DNA of 14,437 nucleotides, taken from assembly GCA_038128265.1 (NCBI GenBank), contig JAYPJE010000082.1, forward strand, positions 1 through 14,437, read 5' to 3'. A program made the translations under genes and the position numbers. Below the pieces are notes generated by a model, which did no database searches, was not told where the DNA came from, and saw only the letters and a program-made list of their open reading frames with translations. Below, one piece after another: positions 1-14,437 of this stretch (its first letter is position 1; each line of letters opens with the position of its first letter). The DNA is from Gemmatimonadota bacterium. Lineage in GTDB: Bacteria > Latescibacterota > UBA2968 > UBA8231.

Positions 1-48
1 GTATACGAAGCACCGGACGAGTCGCACCACGCGCGTTTTTAAGTTGGA

Positions 49-927
49 TTGAACATATCGCTGGCCGAATGGGCCGCCCTCTCCTGCGCGCTAATCTGGG
101 CGACCAACGGCCTGCTGCTGCGCACCCAATCCGAACACGTCACGCCCGGTGCCATGAACGCCATTCGCTGCGCCGTGGCCGGCGTGGCCTTTTGGCTGGC
201 CATCCCCTTTGACAGCGTGCCCCTGACCGGCCTGCTCGAGGTAACGCTGGCCGAGTGGGGCATGATGCTGGCTGCGCTCAGCCTGGGCGTTGCGCTGGGC
301 GACACGCTCTACCTGATCGCCATGAAGGAAATCGGCGTCTCGCGCACCCTGGCGCTAACAGGCACCTTTCCGCTGACGACGCTGTTCTGGCAAACCCTCC
401 TGCTCGACGCACCCTTTAACCCAACGCTGCTGCTGGGCAGTGCGCTGGTCGTGGGCGGGCTGTTCTTTCTTTCGCGCAGCGGTGCGGCCGACGAGCGACC
501 CGTGCGCCTGCAGTGGGGCATTGCCCTATCGCTGATCGCCGCTCTATGCTGGGGCTTCTCGGCCACCCTGCTCAAACCGGCCACCGTGCACATGAGCGCG
601 ATTCAGACCAACGCCATCCGCATGCCGCTCATCGCCCTGCTGCTCTTTGTCGCGCGCGTGCTGCCCAGCGGCAACGAGCGCCTGCGCGGCATCCGCCCGC
701 GCAGCCTGCTCATCGTCGGTGCCACCGGCCTGCTCGGCATGGGCGTGGGCGCCTACCTCTTTATTTATGCGCTCACGCAGGCCAATCCGGCCAAGGTCGT
801 TACGCTAACCTCGAGTTCGCCGCTCTTTGGCATGCTGCTGGCCGCTGTTTTTTTGGGGGAAAAAATTACGCTGCAAATCGCCCTAGGTATGGCGCTATGC
901 ATGGGCGGGGTCTACGTCGTGCTGTAG
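49..927 (+). CDS. EamA/DMT (drug/metabolite transporter) family permease
   Basis: 292 aa, about 10 hydrophobic segments in two EamA-like halves (ALIWATN...NAIR...AMKEIGVSRT...FPL; ALCWGFS...NAIR...SSPLFGMLLAAVFLGEKIT). The TTG start is uncertain. Confidence 0.9.
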   Translation: MNISLAEWAALSCALIWATNGLLLRTQSEHVTPGAMNAIRCAVAGVAFWLAIPFDSVPLTGLLEVTLAEWGMMLAALSLGVALGDTLYLIAMKEIGVSRTLALTGTFPLTTLFWQTLLLDAPFNPTLLLGSALVVGGLFFLSRSGAADERPVRLQWGIALSLIAALCWGFSATLLKPATVHMSAIQTNAIRMPLIALLLFVARVLPSGNERLRGIRPRSLLIVGATGLLGMGVGAYLFIYALTQANPAKVVTLTSSSPLFGMLLAAVFLGEKITLQIALGMALCMGGVYVVL

Positions 928-960
928 AAGCGCTGGGATTTCTCTACCGCGCGCCGCCGG

Positions 961-1779
961 TTACTCTGGCCCGTACCACCACACCTTGCGCCGTATCCGC
1001 ACGCTGGCGCCCTTGGCGATACTGGCGAAAGAGCTTTTCAGATATAGCATGTCGAAAAAGCGCTGTCGAGGCCGGGACTGCACCATGCCATCGGCGACCT
1101 GCTTCCACTGAGCCGCTGTTTCTACGATCACGCGATCCTCGCCTATCAGGGTAGCGGATATGACAGTGCGAATAAAGTACGACCCCTTTGACCACAGCTC
1201 CACGTTGTCTCTGTGCTCCAACTCATACGGTATACCCATCAAGTCTCTGCCGTGGTGCGCCTTATCGTATACGCGCTGGCGCATACGCCGATCGCTCTCG
1301 GGGGCGCGCTCGTCCCACGCACTACCGTCTTCCAACTCGACGTTGGAAATTTCCGTATAGTGGTGCGTACAGCACAGGTAGTCCCTTGTCACGTACTTGC
1401 CCAGCCCCTCGACACCGGACTCGGTCATCTCGCCGTATATATCCACCAACATCGCATCAATGGCCGGCACGCCTGTCCAATTGCCCGTGATGGGGTCCTC
1501 GGATAGCAGCAAACTCGGCTCGTAGTCCATCAGCTCCATCGCGCGACAGCAGAGGTTCATATTCAACCGCTCCTGGCCGGCGATAATGCGCCCTAGCGTA
1601 TTGTTGGTAACGCCCAGTGCTTCTGCTAGCTGAGTTTGGCTCCATCCCCGCACCCCCATAGCTTGAGCGAGGCGACTGCCAATGGTCACAGAGTAGGATA
1701 CATCTGTACTGCTGAGGTCTGCGCGCGCGCTGGGCGCGCCCCTACCCGCGTCGTTTGACGATGTACTACGCACAGACAT
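961..1779 (-). CDS. XRE/Cro-C1 HTH regulator with putative NTF2/SnoaL-like C-terminal domain (paralog 1)
   Basis: IGSRLAQAMGVRGWSQTQLAEALGVTNNTLGRIIAGQ is a typical HTH_3 motif. Start moved from 1809 to ATG 1779 because GGAGG (1790-1794) lies directly after the upstream stop. The C-terminal fold is inferred from the sequence pattern only. Confidence 0.8.
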   Translation of the reverse strand: MSVRSTSSNDAGRGAPSARADLSSTDVSYSVTIGSRLAQAMGVRGWSQTQLAEALGVTNNTLGRIIAGQERLNMNLCCRAMELMDYEPSLLLSEDPITGNWTGVPAIDAMLVDIYGEMTESGVEGLGKYVTRDYLCCTHHYTEISNVELEDGSAWDERAPESDRRMRQRVYDKAHHGRDLMGIPYELEHRDNVELWSKGSYFIRTVISATLIGEDRVIVETAAQWKQVADGMVQSRPRQRFFDMLYLKSSFASIAKGASVRIRRKVWWYGPE

Positions 1780-2406
1780 AGCGCCATATCCTCCGTTAAC
1801 CGCCCGCACTGGGGCGGCCCAAGCTAAACCATACCTTGCGCCGTATCCGCACGCTGGCGCCCTTGGAAATGCTCATAAATGTGTTCTTCAGGTAAAACAT
1901 ATCTGCACAGTTAAACCGACTCTCTAGCGCATCGCTGTCGATCATTCTCCGCTGGACATCCACCTGCACAAAGACGCAATCCTCGTCTATCAGGACCGCT
2001 GAAGCGACGTGGCGCACATAGCGCGTGCCCAATGAACCGCGCAGATTTTCTTTTCTCTCCAACTCGTACGGAATCCCGATGAGTTCTCTGCCGTAATGCG
2101 CCCTGTCGTATACGCGCTGTCGCAGCGCGCTGTCGCCTCGTGGCGCGTCCTCTTCCCACGCCCCTCCGTCTTCCAGCTCGCACGTAGATTCGTCGACGTA
2201 GTGGTGCGAACAGCACAGATAGTCACCCGTCACGTACTTGCCCAGCTCCTCGACGCCAGACTGACTCGTCTCGCCGTATACATCCGTCAGCATCGCATCG
2301 ATGGCGGGCAAGCCCGTCCAACTGCCTGCAATCGGCTCCTCGGATAGCAACAGGCTTGGCTCGTAGCCCATGACCTCCATCGCGCGACAGCAGAGGTTCA
2401 TATTCA
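983..2406. repeat. Tandem gene duplication with exact nucleotide blocks
   Basis: 34 bp ACCTTGCGCCGTATCCGCACGCTGGCGCCCTTGG at 983-1016 and 1833-1866; 32 bp CTCCATCGCGCGACAGCAGAGGTTCATATTCA at 1534-1565 and 2375-2406. Period about 840-850 bp. Confidence 0.95.
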
Positions 2407-2620
2407 GCCGCTCTTGGCCGGCGATGACCCGCCCCAGCGTATTGTTTGTAACGCTCAGTTCGCCCGCCAGTTGGGTCTGGCTCCAGCCGCGTGCGCGCAT
2501 CGCCTTAGACAGACGACTACCAATATGCCGCGAGTACTGCACATCTGTGAACTTGGGGGATTGACGGCCGCTGCGCGGCACCTTTTCCACGCTCTCTATC
2601 AACCCGTCGCGCACATCCAT
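1796..2620 (-). CDS. XRE/Cro-C1 HTH regulator with putative NTF2/SnoaL-like C-terminal domain (paralog 2)
   Basis: IGSRLSKAMRARGWSQTQLAGELSVTNNTLGRVIAGQ; colinear with paralog 1. Start moved to ATG 2620 (MDVRDG), with GGAGG at 2628-2632, 7 nt upstream. Confidence 0.8.
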   Translation of the reverse strand: MDVRDGLIESVEKVPRSGRQSPKFTDVQYSRHIGSRLSKAMRARGWSQTQLAGELSVTNNTLGRVIAGQERLNMNLCCRAMEVMGYEPSLLLSEEPIAGSWTGLPAIDAMLTDVYGETSQSGVEELGKYVTGDYLCCSHHYVDESTCELEDGGAWEEDAPRGDSALRQRVYDRAHYGRELIGIPYELERKENLRGSLGTRYVRHVASAVLIDEDCVFVQVDVQRRMIDSDALESRFNCADMFYLKNTFMSISKGASVRIRRKVWFSLGRPSAGG

Positions 2621-2884
2621 ATAGCATCCTCCAGTAGAATCTTTGAGTAGCGATCCCCTGTATAAGAAAACGGCTGCGACGGCGCAAGCTATTTTATGGA
2701 ACACTTAACGGGCACGTTCGACTGATTAACCCTGCGTATTGGACCCAAACCGCACTGCGCACAAACACGCCAAGCATTGCCTGCATCCTGCGGTGGCATA
2801 GATTCAGACAGGCATAGTAAATGCGGCATACGGCACCGCAGACCGATCTGCCTGTGGGGCGGGCTCGCACGAAAGAAATTCCAT

Positions 2885-3496
2885 ATGAGAAGTCGACCCG
2901 AGAATGGACATCGCCATTGGCGCCGACGCGCAGTGCAGCGGCTGTGGGGACTCGCCCTGCTGGTGCTGCCAGTGGCCTGCGCGGACGAAGGCGACCCATC
3001 CACTGGCGATGCGGTCGACTTTGCGCGCTGGACAAACCCCGTTACCGGTGCCGTTGTCGAGCTGCCCGAAGGCTGGCGCCACAGTCCGGACACGGCGGCC
3101 AGCGGCCGGACCGTCGTCGGCTACTTTCTGCCGCGCTACGCTTGGATGAAAGGCCAGTACGGCCATATCAGCCTGCACCGAGAAGACCTAGCGGACGCGC
3201 CCCTCAGCATTGAAGAGTACAGCGAGCGTCTAGTGGCCTATCTACAACCCCAAGCAGAAAGCGTTACGCAGACCGTCTTCGCCAAGGGTGCCGACGTAGA
3301 AAAGGCGCATTTTGAGGTAGAGACTATTTACCAGCGCAAACGCAAGGTGCTGCGCTGCCTGGTATGGACGCGCGGCGACGGCCACTTCTGGTACGCCATT
3401 ACCGAACTGCTGGCCAGCGACCGCGCGTTTATCGCCCAAGCCACGCCCGTCGTCGACCGACTTGTCGACAGCACGGCACCTATACCCGCACCTTAA
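2885..3496 (+). CDS. Putative lipoprotein of unknown function (possibly PsbP/DcrB-like fold)
   Basis: Basic N-terminus, then LWGLALLVLPVAC (lipobox-like VAC). AVVELPEGW resembles the PsbP/DcrB start motif. Start is ATG 2885 or GTG 2933, not 2777. Confidence 0.6.
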   Translation: MRSRPENGHRHWRRRAVQRLWGLALLVLPVACADEGDPSTGDAVDFARWTNPVTGAVVELPEGWRHSPDTAASGRTVVGYFLPRYAWMKGQYGHISLHREDLADAPLSIEEYSERLVAYLQPQAESVTQTVFAKGADVEKAHFEVETIYQRKRKVLRCLVWTRGDGHFWYAITELLASDRAFIAQATPVVDRLVDSTAPIPAP

Positions 3497-3926
3497 CGAC
3501 GACCTTTTTAACCGGCTGCGAGGCATCAATAGCCATGCCCGGCATATGCGCATCCTGCGGCTTTAGGATGGTGAAGTAGCCGGCGCGCAGCGTGTAAAAT
3601 TCGCCCTCGCCTTCCAGCGTATAGAAGTCTTTTTCCTCGTCGTAGGGGTTGGCCTGCATGCCCTCGACCGGGCGATAGCCCATGTGTTCAGCACCGGCGG
3701 CCACATACTGCACGTCGAGATAGGCGTGATGAGCCTCCCAGAAGCCCTCGCTCTTGGGCTTGGAATCGTATTCCTGCACCAGCGCATAAACCTCGTCGCC
3801 GTCTATGTCGTAGCGGTCGGGGGCTACCTGGCTAAAGTCCGTTTCCTGCAGGTAGCGCAGGGCCTTCTCAATGCCTGCGCCCAGCGCATAGTACTGCGCG
3901 GCATTTTTTAATTCATCGACAATCAT
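3480..3926 (-). CDS. YhcH/YjgK/YiaL (NanQ/TabA-like) family protein
   Basis: MIVDEL...KALRYL...RYDIDGDEVYALVQEY...WEAHHAYLDVQYV..GAE...PQDAHMP...VKKVVVKV. GGAGGA RBS at 3931-3936 supports ATG 3926. Confidence 0.92.
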   Translation of the reverse strand: MIVDELKNAAQYYALGAGIEKALRYLQETDFSQVAPDRYDIDGDEVYALVQEYDSKPKSEGFWEAHHAYLDVQYVAAGAEHMGYRPVEGMQANPYDEEKDFYTLEGEGEFYTLRAGYFTILKPQDAHMPGMAIDASQPVKKVVVKVRV

Positions 3927-4165
3927 TCTCTCCTCCATGGTGTATATGACCATCGCACGGGCGATGGAGCTGCTTGTAATGCCGTGGACCTTTCGCGCTA
4001 CTTCGCGCTATCCCGTGTGTAATAGGCGCTACAAAATGCCTCGAACGTTATACGCATAGACGCACCCTGTGCCGAGCGTCACCGCGCCCAACGCGGCGAA
4101 CATTCTACGCATAACTGCACGCCGACACAACTAGTTAATCCATCGCAAAAGCCCCGTCCCACCGC

Positions 4166-4182
4166 TTAGCACGCCTTTTGCA
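4166..4182 (+). promoter_or_regulatory. Possible degenerate sigma54 (-24/-12) promoter upstream of the peptide cassette
   Basis: TTAGCACGCCTTTTGCA versus consensus YTGGCACGNNNNTTGCW. Spacing is correct, but the first G of the conserved GG is A. Confidence 0.3.
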
Positions 4183-4230
4183 ACGCCCGCTCCCATCGGC
4201 ACGCACCGCACGCGACAGCGCTGGACGAAT

Positions 4231-5019
4231 ATGGGCGACACTGGTATAACACATCGCTTTTTGAGCAGCATTCCGCACAACGCAGAGGCGCGATGCGCCG
4301 CGCGTGTACCTCCCTGGAGGCTCGCTACTATCGTCTTCTGGCTGGTTGGGTTCGCGGTGCTGTCAGCCGTCGTCGCCGGTGGCTGCGCGCTCGGCATCTG
4401 GCACCTGTCGTCGCGTTACTCGATGCATCTGAACCACCAAGAAATGGCTTTTGCCGTTACCACATCGTCCTATGCGCTCTGCAGCGCAATGGGTCTGACT
4501 TTTATACTGCACCAGCTGAGAAAATCATCGCACTCACTGCGCGACCTGTGGGGTCCACCGACCCTGCGCGGGCGGCACATTGCGCTGGGCCTCGCCGCCG
4601 GCGCACTGCTGATGGGCATGCAGGCGTGGCTGCACGCGCTCTTGGCAGGCTTTCCCACGTCGCCGCCCTACGCCATGCGGATAGGCTGGCCACTGGCCCT
4701 GGCCATAGAGCTGCTGGTAAACGCCGTTTTCATTGGCTGCACTGAAGAAGTGCTCTTTCGCGGCGCCGTTTTCCGCACGCTGCAGGGGCGCTTTTCAAGC
4801 GGACCAGCCGTCGTCCTTTCCACCGCTCTATTCGCACTATTCCACTTTGACTACGCGCACAGCCTGCCAGCCATGACCTATGTCGTAGCCCTGGGCGTTT
4901 CGACGGCGCTGCTGTTGGTGCATACGCACTCGCTCAACGCCTCCGTCGCCCTGCACGCGGCCGGCAACGCGGCCGAGCGCCTGATACACTACGCGCCCTA
5001 CGCGCTGCCGCCGACCTAA
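4231..5019 (+). CDS. CPBP/Abi (type II CAAX) family intramembrane glutamic protease
   Basis: Motifs EEVLFRG, FALFH and HAAGN (EExxxR, FxxxH, HxxxN) in a polytopic membrane protein. Start uncertain. Confidence 0.92.
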   Translation: MGDTGITHRFLSSIPHNAEARCAARVPPWRLATIVFWLVGFAVLSAVVAGGCALGIWHLSSRYSMHLNHQEMAFAVTTSSYALCSAMGLTFILHQLRKSSHSLRDLWGPPTLRGRHIALGLAAGALLMGMQAWLHALLAGFPTSPPYAMRIGWPLALAIELLVNAVFIGCTEEVLFRGAVFRTLQGRFSSGPAVVLSTALFALFHFDYAHSLPAMTYVVALGVSTALLLVHTHSLNASVALHAAGNAAERLIHYAPYALPPT

Positions 5020-5025
5020 AGAGCC

Positions 5026-5640
5026 GTGCGAGACAAGACCATGCGCCAGGGAAATAAATGCGTTGAGCCGCCGCTCACCGCTGGGGATGCCAGCGCGAAC
5101 CAGAGACGTGCGATGGGGGGCATACTCCTACTGATAAGTGCCGTGGCGTTAGCGAGCAGCCTGTATGCCCTTGCACCGCCAGAAACTCGAGACGGCGCAC
5201 GCCGCCACTGGGCGGCCTGGTCTAAGGGTGCCCAATACAAAGGGCTGCAGGACGTCACGCTGCAGACGCATCGCACCAACTGCGGTCCGGCCGCCCTGCA
5301 CATGGCGCTGGCCCGGCTGGGCATTCACCGCCCACTGGAGGCGATCGAGGCGTCCACCGGCACCGACCGCAGCGGCACCTCGCTCTTTGCGCTGGGACGG
5401 TATGCCGAAGACCAGGGCGTAGGCGCAGCTCTATGGCACCTAAATATGGACGACCTGGTCGAGCGCAACCAACTGCCAGCCATCGCCTTTGTCGAGAACA
5501 ACCACTTTGTCGTCATCGACTCTATCGGGCACGGCGGTGACCTGTGGCTGCGCGATCCGGCCATTGGCCAACTGCACATGACGCGCGCGGCGTTTCAGCG
5601 CATATGGCAGGGCGAGGTCATCCTGCTCGACGCGCCGTAG
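5026..5640 (+). CDS. Stand-alone C39 cysteine peptidase with N-terminal membrane anchor/signal
   Basis: LQTHRTNCGPAAL (oxyanion Gln, catalytic Cys), GTSLFAL, NHFVVID (His), RDPAIG (Asp), FQRIWQG. Hydrophobic GGILLLISAVALASSLYALA follows RR. No ABC domain. Start may be 5026 or 5041. Confidence 0.92.
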   Translation: MRDKTMRQGNKCVEPPLTAGDASANQRRAMGGILLLISAVALASSLYALAPPETRDGARRHWAAWSKGAQYKGLQDVTLQTHRTNCGPAALHMALARLGIHRPLEAIEASTGTDRSGTSLFALGRYAEDQGVGAALWHLNMDDLVERNQLPAIAFVENNHFVVIDSIGHGGDLWLRDPAIGQLHMTRAAFQRIWQGEVILLDAP

Positions 5641-5645
5641 TCTTT

Positions 5646-6013
5646 TTCACCGTGTGGGGGAACGGCTGTTCTAACGACCGGTATTTCAAAGGAGCATTAC
5701 ATGATTAAACGCATCTGCAGCAGCTACGCGCTGGCGGCAGCCATGGCGATGGGACTCTTTGTCCAGAGCATCACGGCCAACCGCAGCGAGGTGATATCCC
5801 GGCCAATCTCGCTGTTGGAGGCACAGCATACAAAGGGCGCGGCCCTGGGCATTGTCACCATACCTTGGTCCGTTTACATCGCGGCCATAACCGTCGATGC
5901 CGCCTTTGTCGCGAGCATGGTAAACCTATTTATCGCATCGAGCGAAGCCGAAGAAAAATAGACCTTTCACGCGCACTCTAAGCGCTGACAAGTAGAGCGC
6001 TCCACACGGTGAA
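5646..6013. repeat. 12-bp perfect inverted repeat flanking the precursor gene
   Basis: TTCACCGTGTGG (5646-5657) is the exact reverse complement of CCACACGGTGAA (6002-6013). Confidence 0.9.
5701..5961 (+). CDS. Putative secreted peptide precursor: signal peptide + double-glycine-type (GA) leader + hydrophobic core
   Basis: Strong RBS AAAGGAG at 5688-5694. MIKR + hydrophobic stretch + ITA forms a signal peptide. ISLLEAQHTKGA matches the register of LSxxELxxIxG(G/A). Directly downstream of a C39 peptidase. Confidence 0.8.
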   Translation: MIKRICSSYALAAAMAMGLFVQSITANRSEVISRPISLLEAQHTKGAALGIVTIPWSVYIAAITVDAAFVASMVNLFIASSEAEEK

Positions 6014-6019
6014 TGGGCA

Positions 6020-6053
6020 GGGCTGTCGACCTCGGCAACGGGGTCGACAGCCC
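6020..6053 (+). other. Strong RNA stem-loop (15 bp, GCAA tetraloop) after the precursor gene
   Basis: GGGCTGTCGACCTCG-GCAA-CGGGGTCGACAGCCC gives 14 Watson-Crick pairs plus 1 G-U and a GNRA loop. No U-tract follows. Confidence 0.85.
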
Positions 6054-6118
6054 CGAGCCTAGCGGCGCTCCGCTACGCCGAGCAGCGCACGCACCCGCTT
6101 ACCGAAAGAGGCGAAACT

Positions 6119-6940
6119 ATGGAAATGAGAAACCGTTCATCAGGTAGCTTTATGAGTGACAGCGCGTTCACCCGCATGCTGAGCCTGCCTTTTGGCCACG
6201 TGCACGGCAGAGCGACCAGCGCGCTCCTGCTGTGCGCTTCCACTTACTTCTTGCTGCCTCAGCTCAGGCTCTCCGTTCAGCGCGCCTTCGCACTGAGCGA
6301 CTACGCCGCCGTCTTCCAGAACGCGCTGCCCTTTGCGCTGTTGTTGCTGTCGCTCTTAGCGTTTGCCCACATAGAACGCGTACCGCTCACGGCGCGCACA
6401 TTGGGCCTCTCTCTCGATATGCCGAACGAGCGAAAAAACTCCGTGCTCCTGTATGTCGGGATCATGGCGCTGGGCGGTTTGTGCATTGCCCTATTCCTGG
6501 GCTACTTCAAGCAACTGGGCATTCCCATACACCGCATCAGCACCTATATCGGCCAAGATGCTCCGCTGCTGCATGCGACCACCGATGCCAACAGCTGGCA
6601 CTCCCTGCTGCTCGACGTGCTGCCGCACTGCATAGGCGTTTTAGTGCTGGCACCCGTCATAGAAGAGATCTACATCACCGCTATCGTATTCCCCGTGCTG
6701 CGCAACAGGTTGGGCTTTGTCGCAAGCGCCGGCATTGCCGCTTCTATCTTTGCGCTATTTCACGCCAGCGCCAACCCACTAGCCGACGGGCAGTGGCTGC
6801 CCTTTGCCATCATTGCCGTCGGGCAGATCGCATCGTTCACGCTCTATCAGGGCACGCGATCGCTCTATCCATCCATCGCCTCGCACGCCCTGCGCAACTT
6901 TGCCGTCCTTTTTGTAGAGCTCAGCGCGCTCGTTGGATGA
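6119..6940 (+). CDS. Second CPBP/Abi family intramembrane protease (variant motif 1)
   Basis: LAPVIEEIYIT, FALFH, TRSLYPSIASHALRN; multiple TM segments; AGAGG upstream of ATG 6119. Confidence 0.88.
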   Translation: MEMRNRSSGSFMSDSAFTRMLSLPFGHVHGRATSALLLCASTYFLLPQLRLSVQRAFALSDYAAVFQNALPFALLLLSLLAFAHIERVPLTARTLGLSLDMPNERKNSVLLYVGIMALGGLCIALFLGYFKQLGIPIHRISTYIGQDAPLLHATTDANSWHSLLLDVLPHCIGVLVLAPVIEEIYITAIVFPVLRNRLGFVASAGIAASIFALFHASANPLADGQWLPFAIIAVGQIASFTLYQGTRSLYPSIASHALRNFAVLFVELSALVG

Positions 6941-6967
6941 CGCGCTGTGCGTGCGGTCGCGCCCGAC

Positions 6968-7873
6968 TCAAGCCTCGTCGCCGAGCCGAAAGTTGGCCAT
7001 GCCCTCGAGCACTTTTAGAATGGCTATGTGGTCTGCCTTGCCGTCGCCGTGCGCCAGGCAGCTATTGTAGAGCTGCCAAGCATTGGTCGCGTTGGGCAGC
7101 ACCATGCCCAGCTCCTTGGCCGCGCTGACGGCCAGTCCCAGATCCTTCTGCTGCAGCTCTACGCGAAAGCTCTGCTCAAAGTTCCGCTCTAGCATGCGCT
7201 GGCCGTGGTTTTCCAAAATGAGCGACTGGGCAGCGCCACCCATAAGAGCCTGGCGCACCCTGTGCGGGTCGGCTCCCGCTTTGGCGGCAAAGAGCAGCGC
7301 CTCGGCAACCGCCTCGACCGTAATACCGACGATAATTTGGTTGGCCACTTTGCACACCTGGCCATCGCCGTTGCGCGTGCCGATCAGCGTAACGGTGCTA
7401 CCCATTACCTCAAAGAGCGGCTTGATCTGTGCAAAGGTCGCTTCGGGACCGCCGACCATAATGGTCAGCTCGCCCGTTACGGCGCGGCCCGCCCCGCCCG
7501 AGACGGGCGCATCGAGATAGGCGCATCCCAGCGCGTTGATACGGCGAGCAAAGTCGACGGTAGCCGTTGGGGAGATCGAGCTCATATCGACGACCACCTT
7601 GCCGGGCTGCAGGCCGTTGGCCACGCCGTCTTCGGCAAAGAGCACCGTCTCCACGTCGGGCGTATCGGGCACCATCAACACGACGATATCGGCCGCCTCG
7701 GCCACTTCGCGATTGCTCGCCTTGACCACAGCACCACCGTCCAGTATCTCCTGCGGCAGCGGCGGATCAAAATGGACGACGACCAGATCGTAGCCGGCGC
7801 GCTGTAGGTTGAGCGCCATCGGACGACCCATAATGCCTAAACCGATAAAGCCTACGGTAGGTGTGTCGCTCAC
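6968..7873 (-). CDS. glxR: 2-hydroxy-3-oxopropionate (tartronate semialdehyde) reductase, beta-hydroxyacid dehydrogenase family
   Basis: GFIGLGIMG, MVPDTPDVE, DMSSISP, LDAPVSGG, GDGQVCKVANQIIV, KAGADP.RVRQALMGG and QKDL closely follow GlxR. The AGGAGG RBS overlaps the upstream TAG. Confidence 0.85.
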   Translation of the reverse strand: MSDTPTVGFIGLGIMGRPMALNLQRAGYDLVVVHFDPPLPQEILDGGAVVKASNREVAEAADIVVLMVPDTPDVETVLFAEDGVANGLQPGKVVVDMSSISPTATVDFARRINALGCAYLDAPVSGGAGRAVTGELTIMVGGPEATFAQIKPLFEVMGSTVTLIGTRNGDGQVCKVANQIIVGITVEAVAEALLFAAKAGADPHRVRQALMGGAAQSLILENHGQRMLERNFEQSFRVELQQKDLGLAVSAAKELGMVLPNATNAWQLYNSCLAHGDGKADHIAILKVLEGMANFRLGDEA

Positions 7874-7885
7874 GACCGCTGCCTC

Positions 7886-8305
7886 CTATAGATCGCCCTC
7901 TTCGGCGATGGTGTCCCAGCCGGCAATGCGCACGCTGTCCTCGATTTCACCGATGGCGATATTGGCAAAGGTCAGCGCCAGCGTGCCCTCTTCTAAGTGG
8001 CCGCCAAAACCGTTGCGCTCGTCGGAAAAGTCGATGTGACAATGCACTTTGCCATCGAGAATAAATCCATTGAACGAACAGATATCGAGCGGCTGAATGC
8101 TCTTGGGATAGCTCTCTTTGGGCGGCAGTTCGTTGCTCATCACCACGTGAAAATGCGAATGGCTGCAGGAACCGAAACCGGTCAGGATCAGTCCGTTTTT
8201 GATGCCGTGCTCCTGCACGGCCTGACGCAGGCCCAGCAAAATATCTTCGCCTGGCGCAATGCGCACCAGCACGACTCGCTGCATACTCGTCTCGCGCGAA
8301 ATCAC
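7886..8305 (-). CDS. PPC domain (DUF296 / AF0104-like) protein
   Basis: RIAPGEDIL, GFGS, HCHIDFSD and FGGHL motifs; AAAGGAGA RBS before GTG. Confidence 0.85.
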   Translation of the reverse strand: MISRETSMQRVVLVRIAPGEDILLGLRQAVQEHGIKNGLILTGFGSCSHSHFHVVMSNELPPKESYPKSIQPLDICSFNGFILDGKVHCHIDFSDERNGFGGHLEEGTLALTFANIAIGEIEDSVRIAGWDTIAEEGDL

Positions 8306-8442
8306 ATCCGTCTCCTTTGGTCACGCTTCACCGCGTCTATGCGGTGCAATGCATGGAATAGTAGCTGCTACGCAGCATAACATAACACGGTTATCTAGGC
8401 GACAACATGGCGGGTAAAAAACGGAGGGCGGATCTCGCGGAT

Positions 8443-9354
8443 TCAGCGACAGCCAATGCGTTCGGTAGATACGACGATGTGATCGAAGTAGCGCTCCTGC
8501 TCCTGTGGCGAGCCGGCGTTCCAGTAGTTTTCGAAAAAGAGGCCGTTGATGGCATAGGCGCCGTAGCTACCAACAAAGTCGAGGCTATCGCGCCGCGCTT
8601 CGAGAAGGTCGTCAATCCAGAATGCGTGCACGCCGTTGCGCTCGCCCGGATCGTTAAGACGCACGTACGCTTCTACGCAGCGCCAGGTGCCTGAATCAGC
8701 CGTCGAAAAAATGGCCGTCGAGCCGGCGCGGTAGCCCAGCCAGCGCAGGCTGTCAAAGTCGTTGTACCCCACGCAGGCAACCGAGTCACCGCGCACGCAA
8801 GAGGCCGGGTCGATGAGCAGATGCCCCGCATCATCGCTCCATAGGTGCGCGATCATGGCCTGCGACCAGTCGGTTGCCGATGTAAAAACTGTGGCGCGCG
8901 ACAGCTTGGCCGGCGAACCGCGCCAGCCCTCCTCGTGCTTGAGATACATGCGGTAATACACCGCGCGAAAATCTTTGTCGCCGCGGATACCTCTGTTCAT
9001 ATAGGCGTTGGGATTGCGACCGAAGCCGAGCTTAAAGCCCCCTGCACTCACCTCACCCACTTCAAATCGCGTGCGCATGCCGCGCGAACCGCCAACGCCG
9101 GCGGAGTCGCGCACGACAAAATCGCCGTCGTCATCGCCGTATTCAAAGTAGCGACCGGTGGCAACGAGCGGCCCGTCTGCCTCAAAGTCGTCGCAGAAAA
9201 TCCACTCGGGATGAGCGGTCTGCCAGTTTGCACATTCATCGGATGGGGGAAAAACGACGCCCTGGGCGCTGGCGCTCGGATTGGATCCGCAGGCCCCTAG
9301 GGCAAGGAGCAGAAGATATGAGCGGAGAGCAATACTCATACTGGGCGCGCTCAC
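8443..9354 (-). CDS. Lipoprotein with putative beta-jelly-roll polysaccharide lyase/Cip1-like domain
   Basis: Lipobox LLLLALGAC; FCDDFE, YYRMY, GTWRCVEAYVRLNDPG..NG...FWID, ENYWN, YFDHIVVSTERIG. The GTG start overlaps the fucosidase TGA (alternative ATG at 9339). Confidence 0.6.
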   Translation of the reverse strand: MSAPSMSIALRSYLLLLALGACGSNPSASAQGVVFPPSDECANWQTAHPEWIFCDDFEADGPLVATGRYFEYGDDDGDFVVRDSAGVGGSRGMRTRFEVGEVSAGGFKLGFGRNPNAYMNRGIRGDKDFRAVYYRMYLKHEEGWRGSPAKLSRATVFTSATDWSQAMIAHLWSDDAGHLLIDPASCVRGDSVACVGYNDFDSLRWLGYRAGSTAIFSTADSGTWRCVEAYVRLNDPGERNGVHAFWIDDLLEARRDSLDFVGSYGAYAINGLFFENYWNAGSPQEQERYFDHIVVSTERIGCR

Positions 9355-10709
9355 GGTGAACAGAACAGGCCTACGCGACGCAGCAGCGCCGGCGCGCGCG
9401 ACGCTTCAATGCGCAGGCGCACCCGCCGGACGGCCACCCGGCTAAAGCGCTCCAGCCGCTGGTAGCCGATGCAGCCGCCGCGCACCATTTCCTTCCACTG
9501 ACCGTCGTGCCAACCTTCCAGCACAAAGCGCTCCACGCGCTGGCCCTCCTCGATGAATTCCTGCACGAGCAGGCGATCAATGGTCTTTTCAGCACCCAGC
9601 TCCAGCTCCAGCACATCCTCTTCCGACTGGGCTGACCAGCAGCTTTCCCACGCCCCATCGACGGCCGCCCCACCGCCCTGCGCACCGCGCGCCAGGTCTT
9701 CGGCAAAGGTCGCATCGAGCACGGAACGCAGCTCCTTCAGGCGCGCTACGTCGTTCTCGTGAAAGAGGCCGCGGCGGTCGGGCGGCACGTTGAGCAGCAG
9801 CACGCTGTTGCGCCCGACAGAGCGGTAGTAGATGTCCAGCAGGTGGTCGAGGGACTTAACCTGCAAATCCTGCGCAGCGTGGTAAAACCAGCCCGGACGG
9901 ATCGATACGTCGCACTCGGCCGGATACCAGAAGCACGCCTCACCCTGCGCCAAATTGTCGCGACTGCCCAAGTCTTTGGCGCCGTTGTCCACCGCGAGAA
10001 AATCGACGCCGCGCTCACCGGTCGCGCGCGGTCCGGCCACTACGCTCCATTCGTCGGCGCGCGCCAGACCCGACTCGTTGCCGACCCAGCGCACGTCCGG
10101 TCCACAAATGGCTATGGCCGCCTCCGGCTGCAGCTGGCGCACCACTTCGTAGTAGCGCGCCCAATCGTACTCCTGTCGCTTGCCGTTGGGCCCTTCGGCA
10201 CAGGCTCCGTCAAACCACACTTCTGCTAGGGGACCATAGTTGCTCAGCAGCTCGCGCAGCTGCGCACAGAAAAACGCATTGTAGGCCGGCGAATCGCCGT
10301 AGCTGTGCTCGTGGCGATCCCACGGCGAGCAGTAGACGCCAAACTTCAAACCGGCGCGTGCACAGGCTGCGCTGACCTCAGCGACGACGTCGCCCCGACC
10401 GGCGCGCCACGGGCTGTTTTTGACCGAGTGCTCGGTGTGTGCGCTGGGCCATAGGCAAAAGCCATCGTGGTGCTTGGCCGTCAGAATCAGCAGCTTCATA
10501 CCGGCGTCGCAGCAGGCCGCTACCCACTGGTCGGCGTCGAATTCGGTTGGATTGAACAGGCTGGGATCTTCCGCGCCGTCGCCCCACTCGCGGTCGGTAA
10601 ACGTGTTAATACCAAAGTGGGCAAACGCGATGTATTCCAAGCGCTGCCACGCCAGCTGGCGCGGCGTCGGACGCGCCGCCAGCGCGCGCGCCAGCACGTC
10701 GTTACTCAC
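9351..10709 (-). CDS. Alpha-L-fucosidase, GH29 (GH29B-like), with C-terminal F5/8 / CBM32-like domain
   Basis: HFGINTFTDREWG, LTAKHHDGFCLWPS, SPWDRH, EVWFDGA (nucleophile Asp), RWVGNESG, ECDVSIRPGWFYH, SVGRN..LLLNVPP. GGAGG at 10717-10721 supports GTG 10709. Confidence 0.95.
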   Translation of the reverse strand: MSNDVLARALAARPTPRQLAWQRLEYIAFAHFGINTFTDREWGDGAEDPSLFNPTEFDADQWVAACCDAGMKLLILTAKHHDGFCLWPSAHTEHSVKNSPWRAGRGDVVAEVSAACARAGLKFGVYCSPWDRHEHSYGDSPAYNAFFCAQLRELLSNYGPLAEVWFDGACAEGPNGKRQEYDWARYYEVVRQLQPEAAIAICGPDVRWVGNESGLARADEWSVVAGPRATGERGVDFLAVDNGAKDLGSRDNLAQGEACFWYPAECDVSIRPGWFYHAAQDLQVKSLDHLLDIYYRSVGRNSVLLLNVPPDRRGLFHENDVARLKELRSVLDATFAEDLARGAQGGGAAVDGAWESCWSAQSEEDVLELELGAEKTIDRLLVQEFIEEGQRVERFVLEGWHDGQWKEMVRGGCIGYQRLERFSRVAVRRVRLRIEASRAPALLRRVGLFCSP

Positions 10710-10744
10710 CTGTGGACCTCCTGCCTGCGCCGCCGAACACACTG

Positions 10745-12076
10745 CTATCGCGTCGCGTTGTCCCTGCGCCGCTCGCGTGCGCTGCGCGGCATTTTTTCCT
10801 GCAGCGCATTCACGCCGCCTTCGCCCTTGGTCAGGTTAAACGCATCGTAGAGCTCGCCCGTCGCCATATAGGCGCGGTAGACCAACTCGTCTCCATCGAC
10901 CTCAATGATTTGATAGAGCTGGGTATCTTCAGCCACGCGGCGCATCAGCGGGTGGACGCCGCTCTCGTACATTTTTGGACCGCTGACCGAAACCACGTAC
11001 ACCGTACCGCTGTCGTCGTCGCGCACGCTGAGCCCCTCGCGCACGTTGCGCGTGCGGCCATAGGTGTGGTCGTGGCCCTGCAGCACCAGGTCTACCCGGT
11101 GCCGATCGATAATCGGCATCCACAGCGCGCGCAGCGTTTCGTTGTCGCGCCCGGCAGCAGCTGAAAAAATGGGATGGTGAAAGACGAGCACCGTCCAGCG
11201 CTGCGGGCTGTCGTTGAGCACGGCATCGAGCCAGGCGACCTGCTCCTCAAGCATCTCGTTGGTGTTGAGTACGACGATGCGCACGCCCTGATAGTCCACG
11301 TAGTAGACGCTCTCCTCTAAGCCGGCGGGCCCGTGCGTCGGCAGGGCGAACTGCGGACGCCAGTGGGTGGATAAATGACGCGCTCCCGACGCATCGGCTC
11401 CGTATTCGTGGTTGCCCGCCGCCGGTATGCTCGGCAGCATGCCGTTGAGCCAGCCGGCCGCATAAAACCACTCGCCCCATTCGGCATCGCGATTGTGCCT
11501 ATTGATCAGATCGCCTGCGTGGATGATAAAGCGCGCATCGCTGGCGTGCTTGTAGGCCTGGCGAATCACGCGCGACCAGTGCGCCTTGACCTCGTTCTGG
11601 GCGTCGCCGAAGTAGATAAACTTGAACGGCTTGCGCTGGCGGCTAGCCGTGCGAAACTGGAACCACTCACTCCAATTGGCCCCGTCGCCAACGCGGTAGG
11701 CGTAGAGCGTCTCGGGCAGCAGGCCCTTAAACTCGGCCGAGTGATAGCTGGCTTCGCCCAGGTCGGTGGCCAACCTCTGCGTTGTGGCCAGTATCGTCAC
11801 CGCGCTATCGCGCATGCCCTCGATTTTTCCGTAACCACCGTGCGGCGTGGCCAGCGTCAGTTCAGCCACCGCGCTGTCGACGCGCGCGGCCGTGCGCCAG
11901 GTGACCGCCTGAGAGGTCGCCGGGTCGTCCGTCCAGGTCAGCACGATGCGATCGGGCACGTCGAGCGGACGGTGCACCTCGGTCTCGGCGACGGGCTCGG
12001 GCGTATGGGCGTAGGCCAGCGCAGCCTGCAGTGCACATGCCAGCGCAAATAGCGCCCGTTTTGCTATAAAAAACAT
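10745..12076 (-). CDS. Secreted purple-acid-phosphatase-like metallophosphoesterase (FN3-like N-domain + calcineurin-like domain)
   Basis: Signal peptide ending in AYA; VTWRT, GLLPETLYAYRVG, FRTA; metal motifs GDAQ, GDLIN, GNHE, FHHP, GHDH. Confidence 0.9.
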   Translation of the reverse strand: MFFIAKRALFALACALQAALAYAHTPEPVAETEVHRPLDVPDRIVLTWTDDPATSQAVTWRTAARVDSAVAELTLATPHGGYGKIEGMRDSAVTILATTQRLATDLGEASYHSAEFKGLLPETLYAYRVGDGANWSEWFQFRTASRQRKPFKFIYFGDAQNEVKAHWSRVIRQAYKHASDARFIIHAGDLINRHNRDAEWGEWFYAAGWLNGMLPSIPAAGNHEYGADASGARHLSTHWRPQFALPTHGPAGLEESVYYVDYQGVRIVVLNTNEMLEEQVAWLDAVLNDSPQRWTVLVFHHPIFSAAAGRDNETLRALWMPIIDRHRVDLVLQGHDHTYGRTRNVREGLSVRDDDSGTVYVVSVSGPKMYESGVHPLMRRVAEDTQLYQIIEVDGDELVYRAYMATGELYDAFNLTKGEGGVNALQEKMPRSARERRRDNATR

Positions 12077-12187
12077 TCGTTTCCTTTCGACGTATACAGC
12101 GATGCAGAACGGCGTTGCATCTTAAGAACGAATACGGGGCGTGCACTTGGCAAGGCGCGCCAAAACACACCCGATGGCGCGCGTGCG

Positions 12188-13381
12188 CTAGCCCAAATCG
12201 GTATACTGGGCGATGGGCGCCGAGTGCACCGTGCGCTCGGTGCCGGCCTGCAGCGCGTCGATTTCCCGCTGTGCAGCCTGCACCTGCTCGCCGCTGTCGA
12301 GCACTTCGAGGCCCATGCGCACGCGATGCGTCTGGCCCGGACCCAGCTTGATCAGACGTCCCTGCGCGCGTTCAAAAGCCTTAGCATTGGGATAGTCAGT
12401 GGCCGGTTCCAACCCCGTCACGTAGCCATCGGCCTGCGACGCCGTGTTTTTCCACTGGGTAAACGCCGGCAGTTCGCGCTTGTTAAAGCGCAGCAGCAGC
12501 GCCCGGTCGGCCGCGGCGTTGCGCAGCATGGCTAGCGTGGCTCCGTCTTCGCCCGCGAGCAGATCGTACCAGTACACCTGTTCGACGTAGCCTGCCGTCG
12601 GTCCCAGATATTCCTCGTAGGCATCTAACCCTTCGACGGCGCGCGCATCGCGCGGGGCCACCTCGCGGGCGGCCACCTCTAGGCGCGACCCAGCCTCGAG
12701 AAAGGGCGCGCCAAAGTTGCAGTGATAGAGCAGCTCCATCTCGGCATCAATGCCCTTCATATTGGTGACCTCGTCCTCAATGAGCAGTTCGTTGGAGCCC
12801 ACGCGCGTCGAAGCGGTAGCCACCAGCCGGTACTGCGGACAAAATAGACCGGCCTCGTGCACTTCGCCCCGCACCACGAGCGTTGCCGGATCGCCGGGCA
12901 GGACCCGCACTTCCACGCGCCAGGCCGGCAGGTTGGCAATCTTACCGTGCAGCGTCAGGTCGACCTGCGTCGGCACGCCCATATTATTGGGCACGACATC
13001 GGGGCCCGGCGCACCCGTCGAGTCGAGGCCGCATCGCACGATGGCCTCGTCGAAGCCGGCTAACCAGCCCAGGCCGCCGCGATCCTGCAAATCGACCAGG
13101 TTGGGATGTACGGGACCGCGCACCGGCGAGTTCCAGCCGACATCCAAGCCCTTGTACTGGCCCTTCCAAATGCCCATGCCGCGCGTGGGCAGAATGGAAA
13201 AAGACAGGGCGCCGTTGTCCACCTCTATAAGGTCGACGCCGTCTCCGGGACCACCGCGCAGCACGCGCTTTCTAATGGACCAATTGCCCTCCATGCCGAG
13301 GTCGGCGGCCGCAAGCTCAAATGTCTCTAGCCAAATTCCCTGTCCTGCATCCGTCAGCACCCAAGATGTTTCTTCTGTCAT
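12188..13381 (-). CDS. Aldose 1-epimerase/mutarotase-like protein (DUF4432 / DeoM-like)
   Basis: LRGG..DGVD, PTRGMGIW, GWNSPV, RCGL, LHGKIAN, LLYHCNFG, YVTGLEPAT. Likely start is ATG 13381 (MTEETSW), with a GGGGAGA RBS. Confidence 0.88.
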   Translation of the reverse strand: MTEETSWVLTDAGQGIWLETFELAAADLGMEGNWSIRKRVLRGGPGDGVDLIEVDNGALSFSILPTRGMGIWKGQYKGLDVGWNSPVRGPVHPNLVDLQDRGGLGWLAGFDEAIVRCGLDSTGAPGPDVVPNNMGVPTQVDLTLHGKIANLPAWRVEVRVLPGDPATLVVRGEVHEAGLFCPQYRLVATASTRVGSNELLIEDEVTNMKGIDAEMELLYHCNFGAPFLEAGSRLEVAAREVAPRDARAVEGLDAYEEYLGPTAGYVEQVYWYDLLAGEDGATLAMLRNAAADRALLLRFNKRELPAFTQWKNTASQADGYVTGLEPATDYPNAKAFERAQGRLIKLGPGQTHRVRMGLEVLDSGEQVQAAQREIDALQAGTERTVHSAPIAQYTDLG

Positions 13382-13574
13382 AGCGGTTTCTCCCCGTAAA
13401 AACCCACGGTTTTGTTTTGCACCTATTTCCCGTTTTTGCACGGCACGAGCGCGCGCTAAAGGTATAGCAGATGGCGCGCGCGGCGTCAACGAAGCAGCGA
13501 GGCGTTGAGGCGCGCCGCAAACGGAATTATCTTGCTGCTGAGTACCACGCAGTGCTAGCAACGGAGAATGCGGT

Positions 13575-14437
13575 ATGAGCACAATTCCCAAACGCACGTT
13601 GGGCCGCACGGGCCTCGACATCAGCGCGCTCGGCTTTGGTGGCGCCCCGCTGGGGGATCTCTTTGACGCGGTGCCCGAAGAGCGAGCCCAGTCAACCCTG
13701 CAGGCGGCCTGGGACGCCGGCATTCGCTATTACGATACCTCGCCCTTCTACGGCTACGGTAAGAGCGAGCACCGTTTAGGCTATTTTCTGCGTGGCCAAG
13801 AGCGCGCAGACTTCGCACTGTCGACCAAAGTAGGCCGCGTCTTCAAGGCGGCGCGCGACTTGAAAACCTTTGATAAGGGCGGCTGGGTCGGCGGTCTACC
13901 GTTCACGTTTCACTTTGATTACAGCTATGACGGCATTATGCGCTCATGGGAAGACAGCCTGCAGCGCACCGGACTCAACGCCGTCGAGCTGCTGCTAATC
14001 CACGACCTGGACAGCTTCTTCCACGACAGCGAACAGCGCTTCTCCGCCTACTTAAACCAGCTGATTACCAGCGGCTGGCGCGCGCTGGACGAGCTCCGTT
14101 CGCAGGGGCTGATCAAGGGAGTGGGCGCCGGACTCAACCGCATGGGCGCCATGCCGCGCCTGCTCGACGCCGTCGATTTAGACTTCTGCATCGTCGCCAT
14201 GCCCTACACGCTGCTCGACCAAGAAGTGCTCGACGAGGAGTTTCCCCTGTGCCAGGAGCGCGGCGTCCACATCGTCATCGGCGCCGTCTTCGCCTCCGGC
14301 ATCCTCGTCAACGGGCCGGTAGAGGGCGCGCGCTACGCCTACGCGCCGGCCTCGGAAGACATACTGGAAAAAACGCGGCGCATCGAGGCGGTGTGCCAGC
14401 GCCACGAGGTGCCGCTACCGGCCGCCGCCATGCAATT
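13575..14437 (+). CDS. Aldo/keto reductase, D-threo-aldose 1-dehydrogenase (L-fucose dehydrogenase)-like; 3' truncated by the window edge
   Basis: Absent from the ORF track because it has no stop in the window. My translation: MSTIPKRTLGRTGLDISALGFGGAPLGDLF...AWDAGIRYYDTSPFYGYGKSEHRLG...LSTKVGR...FDYSYDGIMRS...LLIHDLD, with the D/Y/K/H tetrad present. GGAG RBS at 13563-13566. Confidence 0.9.
   Translation, partial: MSTIPKRTLGRTGLDISALGFGGAPLGDLFDAVPEERAQSTLQAAWDAGIRYYDTSPFYGYGKSEHRLGYFLRGQERADFALSTKVGRVFKAARDLKTFDKGGWVGGLPFTFHFDYSYDGIMRSWEDSLQRTGLNAVELLLIHDLDSFFHDSEQRFSAYLNQLITSGWRALDELRSQGLIKGVGAGLNRMGAMPRLLDAVDLDFCIVAMPYTLLDQEVLDEEFPLCQERGVHIVIGAVFASGILVNGPVEGARYAYAPASEDILEKTRRIEAVCQRHEVPLPAAAMQ

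Follow-up and report, generated by a model that had tools for sequence, protein, structure and literature searches.

A free C39 peptidase and its double-glycine-type precursor form a conserved gene pair: a probable Sec-dependent route to secreted peptides in mostly uncultured bacteria

Can a double-glycine leader be cut outside the cytoplasm, by a C39 peptidase that is not part of an exporter? Such leaders are usually treated as a cytoplasmic signal tied to a peptidase-containing ATP-binding cassette (ABC) transporter (PCAT). The question is raised by contig JAYPJE010000082.1 of a Gemmatimonadota bacterium (assembly GCA_038128265.1; Latescibacterota in GTDB), of which positions 1 to 14,437 are called the window here. 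A first-pass annotation had described four co-oriented genes between sugar genes on the opposite strand: a CPBP protease, an exported C39 peptidase, a small precursor peptide and a second CPBP protease. This layout was borne out. The four plus-strand open reading frames (ORFs) lie between minus-strand yhcH-like (DUF386; 3480..3953) and garR-like (NAD_binding_2/11; 6968..7873) genes, both assigned with Pfam and both outside the system. Pfam matched the two outer ORFs, termed CPBP1 (4231..5019) and CPBP2 (6119..6940), to the Rce1-like family (3e-17 and 2e-12) and the second ORF to Peptidase_C39 (3e-26). No ABC gene lies within the cassette, and the genome of the window (G000, 84% complete) holds no second C39. 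Comparison with related loci showed that the conserved unit is two genes, C39 then precursor, and not four.

The loci of the best 79 of 532 C39 relatives were scanned in genomes; 27 of them encode a stand-alone C39 (L038-L064) and 52 encode longer fusions. One locus counted as stand-alone, L053, has a C39 that reads through into the precursor without an ABC domain. A precursor was defined as an ORF of 45–130 amino acids (aa) with a basic and hydrophobic N-terminus and a double-glycine-type motif, at most 700 bp downstream. This filter was passed at 22 of the 27 stand-alone loci versus 2 of the 52 PCAT-fused loci, which gauge background only. At the remaining five stand-alone loci the precursor was recognised by eye, in one case frameshifted, which brings the pair to 27 of 27. 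The best 80 of 150 metagenome matches yielded 61 family loci with 43 distinct C39s, some duplicating genome loci. A precursor follows at 37 of the 43 (34 found by script, 3 by eye), the other six ending within 263 bp; a few of these leaders end in AG or GE. The pair spans Latescibacterota, Bacteroidota/Ignavibacteria, Acidobacteriota and Aminicenantes. Among 168 genomes of the phylum, C39 and precursor profiles matched the same seven, always in adjacent genes, and five further C39 matches were long fusions. A Pfam search of the seven carrier genomes (73–95% complete) found no PCAT, with one weak extra match in a 295-aa frame of the relative G002. Both the linkage of a stand-alone C39 to a signal-bearing double-glycine precursor, as first proposed, and the lack of a detectable PCAT elsewhere in the genome are supported. 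At 50% identity, and with E up to 1e-30, the C39 family falls into 139 clusters; the 150 best representatives have lengths of 110–345 aa. In a phylogenetic tree, the window C39 falls into a nine-row CPBP clade (99/99 support), hereafter the clade. This was the only grouping used, as long branches left the stand-alone family unresolved as one clade relative to PCATs, and the tree label 'TrxCys' was assigned by default to all non-clade stand-alone rows. Two variations on the pair were seen in passing: at L053, L144-L146 and P0026 the C39 frame continues into the precursor as one ORF, and L049 carries two near-identical C39 genes (627-1657 and 5510-6400), each followed by a different precursor, one core resembling that of L052.

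The C39 gene (5041..5640; alternative start 5026) begins at 5041 in public gene calls, a small correction to the ORF start. Its product scores 92 bits against PF03412 (cut-off 22), and the 27 of 27 family members that were aligned all share the catalytic residues C81, H155 and D172, while at least 90% keep Q75. A structure model (pLDDT 93) has a 28-residue N-terminal helix, the predicted membrane anchor, followed by a papain-like domain. By sequence and fold, its best match is to PCAT double-glycine protease domains (LahT147, 6MPZ; 3e-27). At 199–204 aa, the ORF carries none of the ABC membrane and ATPase domains that are fused to the peptidase in PCAT or AMS exporters (ABC transporters for maturation plus secretion), and it scores 60 bits against the PCAT model TIGR03796 (cut-off 853). 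The NCBIfam equivalogs for the exported C39 proteins FapD (NF058616; 21.9 vs 330 bits) and FilB (NF050078; 31.6 vs 475 bits) were likewise far from matched.

ResA-type proteins and disulfide formation are extracytoplasmic, and the partners of the family therefore suggest an outward-facing C39. Outside the clade, a ResA/DsbE-like thioredoxin gene stands upstream of C39 at 16 of 20 genome loci, two of the misses being contig ends. Thioredoxin and C39 are fused in 5 of the 10 longest representatives scanned (P0045, P0075, P0116, P0144, P0149), four of the five with a single N-terminal anchor. An N-terminal hydrophobic segment is present in 105 of 109 complete family C39s, and in 79 of these 105 more positive charge lies before it. 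The number of Cys residues is even in 42 of 43 non-clade cores (kin included); the nine clade cores are Cys-free and have no adjacent thioredoxin. Further partners outside the clade are Yip1/YknW (15 of 20 genome loci), peptidase-free ABC genes (7 of 20) and MauE. The window represents a reduced, Cys-free Latescibacterota branch. In the wider family, the typical partner of C39 is a ResA-like thioredoxin, and the cores would be disulfide-bonded. Anchors, thioredoxin partners and Cys counts all support the earlier suggestion that C39 acts outside the cytoplasm, and we consider Sec export of the precursor together with an outward-facing C39 probable.

The precursor ORF (5701-5961, plus strand, 86 aa) is preceded by a Shine-Dalgarno sequence (AAAGGAG) and has a basic, then hydrophobic N-terminus. 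Residues 1-26 (5701..5778) are Ala-rich and predicted to serve either as a Sec signal or as a signal anchor, a weaker one than elsewhere in the family. Residues 27-47 (5779..5841) form a double-glycine-type pro-leader with the predicted C39 site Gly46-Ala47, and residues 48-86 with the stop codon (5842..5961) the predicted 39-aa core. With Ile at -12, Glu at -8 and Ala at -7, the leader fits the pattern of PCAT substrates, hydrophobic at -4, -7 and -12 and ending in GG, GA or GS (PMC10885120; this and later citations refer to the parts of the papers covered), save for an off-consensus Thr at -4. We tabulated 52 precursors of the family, with cut sites placed by hand. Each of the 52 combines a basic N-terminus with a hydrophobic stretch, their leaders are 40–62 aa long, and one of LIVMF occupies -12 in 47 and -4 in 37, a hydrophobic residue -7 in 44 and Glu -8 in 28. 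Cleavage at the GA site is to be expected with good confidence. The predicted window core is a hydrophobic helix without Cys, ending in an acidic polar tail, and its central Asp is kept in 9 of 9 clade cores. Across the family, cores are 21–57 aa long, hydrophobic in 46 of 52 cases and widely different in sequence between loci; most Cys-type cores lack the polar tail that clade cores have. A separate group (L055, L059, L061, L131, L154, L161, L163, L166, L175) has cores of 26–32 aa with 5–8 Cys, including a CCC run, and lies beside MauE/DoxX genes.

The precursor is under purifying selection, with dN/dS values of about 0.21 against G002 and 0.36 against a second relative, G004, and of 0.13–0.15 for the core (Nei-Gojobori, dS near saturation). 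The background of the precursor filter in the genome of the window amounts to 0.018 matches per 730-bp strand window (213 in 4.29 Mb); eight of these matches have a Shine-Dalgarno sequence and a short frame, and the window ORF is the sole convincing one. Selection and the low background led us to reject a pseudogene or chance ORF, and a lipoprotein was rejected because no Cys follows the hydrophobic segment in the window. The 86-aa ORF has no Pfam family, and an atlas search with it returned generic helix matches only, with no usable feature match.

Presence at this insertion site is patchy. In G006, the empty site, garR and yhcH are direct neighbours; in the window the cassette comes between them. 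G002 carries all four genes and G004 only C39, precursor and CPBP2. G005, of the same genus, has a longer cluster at this site: a transglutaminase-domain gene, a gene combining glycosyltransferase family 2 and TPR domains (GT2-TPR), C39, precursor, CPBP2, Yip1, a membrane fusion protein (MFP), two MacB permeases and an ATPase. The Yip1-MFP-MacB-MacB-ATPase part has the layout of YknWXYZ, the transporter that protects Bacillus against its sporulation delaying protein (SDP; PMC4887032). L041-L044 share a G005-like front part plus Yip1, and GT2-TPR is present at G005, L041-L044 and L119. G000 has no orthologue of the transglutaminase-domain or GT2-TPR enzyme at 84% completeness, and the window has no glycosyltransferase gene, which leaves no match to a glycocin locus. 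The absence of an ABC transporter, part of the original description, applies to the loci of the window, G002 and G004; G005 and the 7 non-clade loci counted above do have ABC genes, all without a C39 domain. Between the window and G002, dS is 1.1–1.4 in the cassette versus 0.55–0.71 in the flanks, an about twofold excess hinting at exchange. Most simply, the window is a reduced version that gained CPBP1, a direction inferred from an unrooted comparison. No relative was found in viral contigs. The longer cluster was recorded at L040:980-5995, L041-L044, L119 and L219 (G005), with an ABC1/UbiB-like kinase gene at its far end, and the N-terminus of its transglutaminase-domain protein looks glycosyltransferase-like in our own reading. 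A lone Yip1 gene in the genome of the window (G000:C79:4059-4790; 28–30% identity to cluster Yip1s) could act in trans.

The reading that we favour, somewhat better than evenly, is a Sec-exported, C39-trimmed, hydrophobic bacteriocin-like peptide with CPBP2 as the likely protection of the producer. The precursor would leave the cytoplasm via Sec, and at the outer face of the inner membrane the anchored C39 would cut it behind Gly46-Ala47. This cut would release a hydrophobic, probably bacteriocin-like peptide, from which CPBP2 would protect the producing cell. The toxin-like traits counted for this reading are the varied hydrophobic cores, Yip1/YknW with a YknWXYZ-like set, the patchy presence at one insertion site with an empty counterpart, and the higher dS of the cassette than of its flanks. 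Antibacterial membrane activity of the predicted core is more likely than not.

In the window, a 12-nt inverted repeat brackets the precursor gene (5' arm 5646..5657, 3' arm 6002..6013, plus strand) and, in folds of the whole region, is predicted to form a long-range RNA helix. Of the clade loci, 10 of 10 have its 5' arm, against 0 of 78 other loci of the family. The 9 of 9 clade loci examined for the pair of arms retain both; one change is compensatory, G-U pairs occur, and the pairing probability is near 1. Duplex-energy shuffles were weak for the window, G002, G004 and L119 (9, 76, 18 and 19 of 200) and strong for L040-L044 (2, 0, 0, 0 and 0 of 200). A 15-bp hairpin without a U-tract follows 3' of the precursor (6020..6053, plus strand; z -8.1), predicted to stabilise or attenuate the mRNA, and a strong hairpin of different sequence occupies the same place in 6 of 6 clade relatives folded. 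At non-clade loci (L045, L046, L048, L049, L052, L054, L055, L059, L120, L122, L130, L137, L147, L151, L164, L169), we observed a conserved, covarying stem, some 110 nt long, between C39 and precursor and immediately 5' of the precursor ribosome site, with 84% of cells paired versus 37–51% in slid controls. The conserved intergenic stems match no Rfam family, and a promoter and terminator scan inside the cassette returned nothing above shuffled sequence. We infer that the stems selectively stabilise the precursor mRNA, which would raise it above the enzyme mRNA.

What, then, do the CPBPs contribute? They are accessory to the C39-precursor pair. CPBP1 is a late add-on: its motifs EExxxR, FxxxH and HxxxN are intact at residues 172, 201 and 242, as expected of a CPBP protease, and it occurs only in G000 and G002 (52% identity). 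The next homologues (29–30%), in G018 and G035, have ABC/HlyD genes and small Gly-rich ORFs as neighbours. CPBP2 scores 47.9 bits in Pfam, above the cut-off, and directly follows the precursor wherever the clade has sequence (window, L038-L044, L117, L118); in G005 it is split over two contigs, and L119 ends before its position. A home-made hidden Markov model of modest sensitivity (a control was found at 6e-4), combined with a motif regular expression, detected an adjacent CPBP at 0 of 78 other family loci, many of them short; in two related loci a CPBP lies farther off, some 3 kb upstream. The idea that the order CPBP-C39-precursor-CPBP defines a class thus did not survive: it is found only in G000 and G002, CPBP2 is confined to a single clade of Latescibacterota, and at most loci no CPBP is adjacent. 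Of the three proteases first proposed, C39 and CPBP1 have intact motifs, whereas CPBP2, with Thr in place of the motif-1 Arg and no motif-2 His in its G002 copy, is uncertain. We take producer protection as its likely role because it is the only candidate for immunity in the three-gene version (G004, L117, L118). Immunity or clearance is an even bet as its role, maturation is less likely, and a scaffold is improbable. A structure model of CPBP2 (pLDDT 53, from 7 sequences) was too poor to judge and was not used. CPBP1-like genes were also seen in clusters that further encode HlyD, ABC exporters free of a peptidase domain, S8 proteases and small Gly-rich ORFs, at L221:2719-8045 (G018), L222 (G035) and L223 (G029), G035 having repeated CPBP/TPR units.

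Several observations weigh against a bacteriocin-like peptide with CPBP2 as its immunity protein. The precursor filter and the double-glycine positions were chosen with the data already in view, and many of the loci are related to one another. The net charge is +1 on both sides of the window C39 anchor, so that topology in the window rests on the family. Signal segments are weaker in the clade (median 2.05 vs 3.08), and an [AVST]-x-A site is present in 0 of 9 clade precursors versus 26 of 43 others; residues 24-26 of the window precursor read Ile-Thr-Ala. None of 38 precursors scanned reaches a bacteriocin-family cut-off, the best sub-threshold match being TIGR03949, with BLB8/JUQZ-1 and TIGR04149 among the other NCBIfam matches below cut-off. 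Being neutral or acidic, the cores differ from cationic bacteriocins, and among G000, G002 and G004 the core is the most conserved part of the precursor, unlike a fast-diversifying toxin. The CPBP2 orthologues that were aligned have EExxxT and not EExxxR as motif 1 in 7 of 7 cases. There are CPBPs without catalytic function (PMC13692083), and SilX, with a similar loss of Arg, is needed for activity and not for immunity (PMC9298176). Finally, the features of the clade changed on one branch, so their co-occurrence counts as one evolutionary event.

A more elaborate form of this scheme is doubtful, though not far-fetched. It would have an undescribed Sec-exported double-glycine class matured wholly outside the cytoplasm by a free anchored C39. 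In the clade variant, C39 would cut outside and a CPBP within the membrane, yielding a Cys-free transmembrane peptide whose mid-helix Asp might carry protons, glycosylated in the longer clusters, and with its mRNA excised by the long-range stem.

Among true rivals, the one that survives best, if still unlikely, makes CPBP2 a second maturase. After Sec export and the C39 cut, it would trim the polar C-terminal tail or an uncleaved N-terminal anchor in the membrane, in the manner of MroQ or a myxosortase. On the CPBP2 branch, the signal is weaker, the site expected for signal peptidase I is gone (0 of 9) and the core has gained its polar tail; the window CPBP2 keeps EE, FxxxH and HxxxN, and CAAX proteases process peptides in SagE and SilX (PMC9298176). 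This pattern is confined to one branch, however, the G002 copy has no motif-2 His, and the three-gene version would be left without an immunity candidate. Less probable still is that the mature peptide acts as a pheromone-like signal or a small resident membrane peptide and not as a toxin. That would suit neutral or acidic cores strongly conserved within the subclade, and ComC also uses a double-glycine leader (PMC10885120). But the loci scanned have no conserved sensor kinase or regulator beside them, genes of the YknW-like and ABC kinds turn up repeatedly, and the cores are long and hydrophobic. We give slightly less credence to a subunit of a fibre or pilus. The periplasmic C39 FapD is required for fibre secretion (PMC5557850), the RNA stems suggest a highly expressed product, and the signal-loop-helix layout resembles coat or pilin subunits. 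The C39, though, scores higher with the PCAT model (60 bits) than with FilB (32) or FapD (22), of 103 neighbours (some unannotated) none was identified as a FapF-like channel or pilus gene, and the cores, 21–57 aa long, are highly varied. Least probable is a cytoplasm-facing C39, tethered by its hydrophobic segment and cutting the leader inside before a generic or neighbouring ABC/MacAB transporter exports the core, for which the PCAT-type domain, the peptidase-free ABC genes at non-clade loci, the MacAB-like genes in G005 and the ambiguous charge around the window anchor might speak, but which is at odds with fusions of thioredoxin to C39 behind a single N-terminal anchor, with the classic signal peptides that most relatives have and with the lack of ABC genes at the window, G002 and G004 loci.

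How new is the favoured scheme of Sec export followed by an outer C39 cut? With PCAT/AMS bacteriocin systems (LahT, PCAT1, ComA), the locus shares the C39 fold, the catalytic residues and the leader pattern; it differs in that C39 is free and N-anchored instead of ABC-fused, and in that a signal-like segment precedes the leader. Among the closest precedents is the nap island of Neisseria (NapP, NapF, NapA-C), where a stand-alone signal-bearing C39 lies beside GG-containing, cationic bacteriocin-like peptides and periplasmic cleavage was proposed (PMC11798529). The locus shares this pairing, but the parts of that paper covered annotate no signal peptide for the Naps and only predict cleavage by NapP, NapF is a FapF-like channel, and the island has no CPBP, thioredoxin or Yip1. 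Neither the window cassette nor G002 nor G004 has a FapF-like outer-membrane channel; elsewhere, some neighbours are unannotated. Pseudomonas FapD and Acinetobacter FilB are stand-alone exported C39s as well, and FapD has been shown to be active in the periplasm (PMC5557850), but their substrates are proteins of fibre systems. SdpC of Bacillus subtilis has a Sec signal, a pro-region and a hydrophobic C-terminal core of about 40 aa with a disulfide (PMC6818787). It resembles the present precursor in these three parts and G005 in the YknWXYZ-like set, but is 203 aa long, needs SdpAB and not C39, and has no double-glycine leader described in the parts of the literature covered, and the window core is Cys-free. 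Pfam and NCBIfam gave no SdpC homology, and no SdpAB-type neighbours occur at the loci scanned. By analogy, we propose that the system may work like SDP, a PCAT-type protease taking over the part of SdpAB. Bacteriocin loci have CPBP/Abi proteins such as SilX and SagE, which share the Rce1-like fold family and a position beside a peptide gene, but here CPBP2 reads EExxxT and goes together with a Sec-type precursor and a free C39.

SkkI and PlnI are further CPBP/Abi proteins of bacteriocin loci, and the Pseudomonas PA2778/PA2779 pair is a further precedent. The claim of a new architecture stands in part: the family is real, conserved and apparently undescribed, while its principle, built from known parts, has a published conceptual precedent in the nap island. 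The literature search, which did not extend to most subscription journals, found no description of a C39-thioredoxin-Yip1 or C39-CPBP family. If the scheme is right, a C39 protease type has been uncoupled from export and probably acts outside the cell membrane on Sec-delivered substrates, a likely overlooked route to secreted, probably antibacterial peptides without a dedicated exporter in dozens of mostly uncultured bacteria. The dozens of small, mostly disulfide-rich cores, which match no Pfam or NCBIfam precursor model, form a pool of candidate antimicrobials from uncultured phyla. The family also supplies natural stand-alone double-glycine proteases, tools listed as wanted in a 2023 review (PMC10885120), and a simple system for testing CPBP function in peptide loci.

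Some neighbouring features were recorded in passing. In Bacteroidota/Ignavibacteria loci, an unnamed exported protein of 160–200 aa follows the precursor and is a candidate immunity protein (L046:7530, L047:3546, L049:1823, L051:1032, L052:6940, L054:1279, L055:6925, L059:7015, L061:850); an atlas search with a 177-aa neighbour of this kind returned unnamed clusters only. A small share of one RNA run contained two 151-nt pieces in CPBP1, uninformative on expression. Upstream of the cassette, the minus strand of the window encodes tandem paralogous HTH_3 proteins with an unnamed C-terminal domain (961-1809 and 1796-2704), which form a single 546-aa ORF in G004. On the plus strand, 2777-3496 encodes a probable lipoprotein with no Pfam family, kept in G002, G004 and G006.

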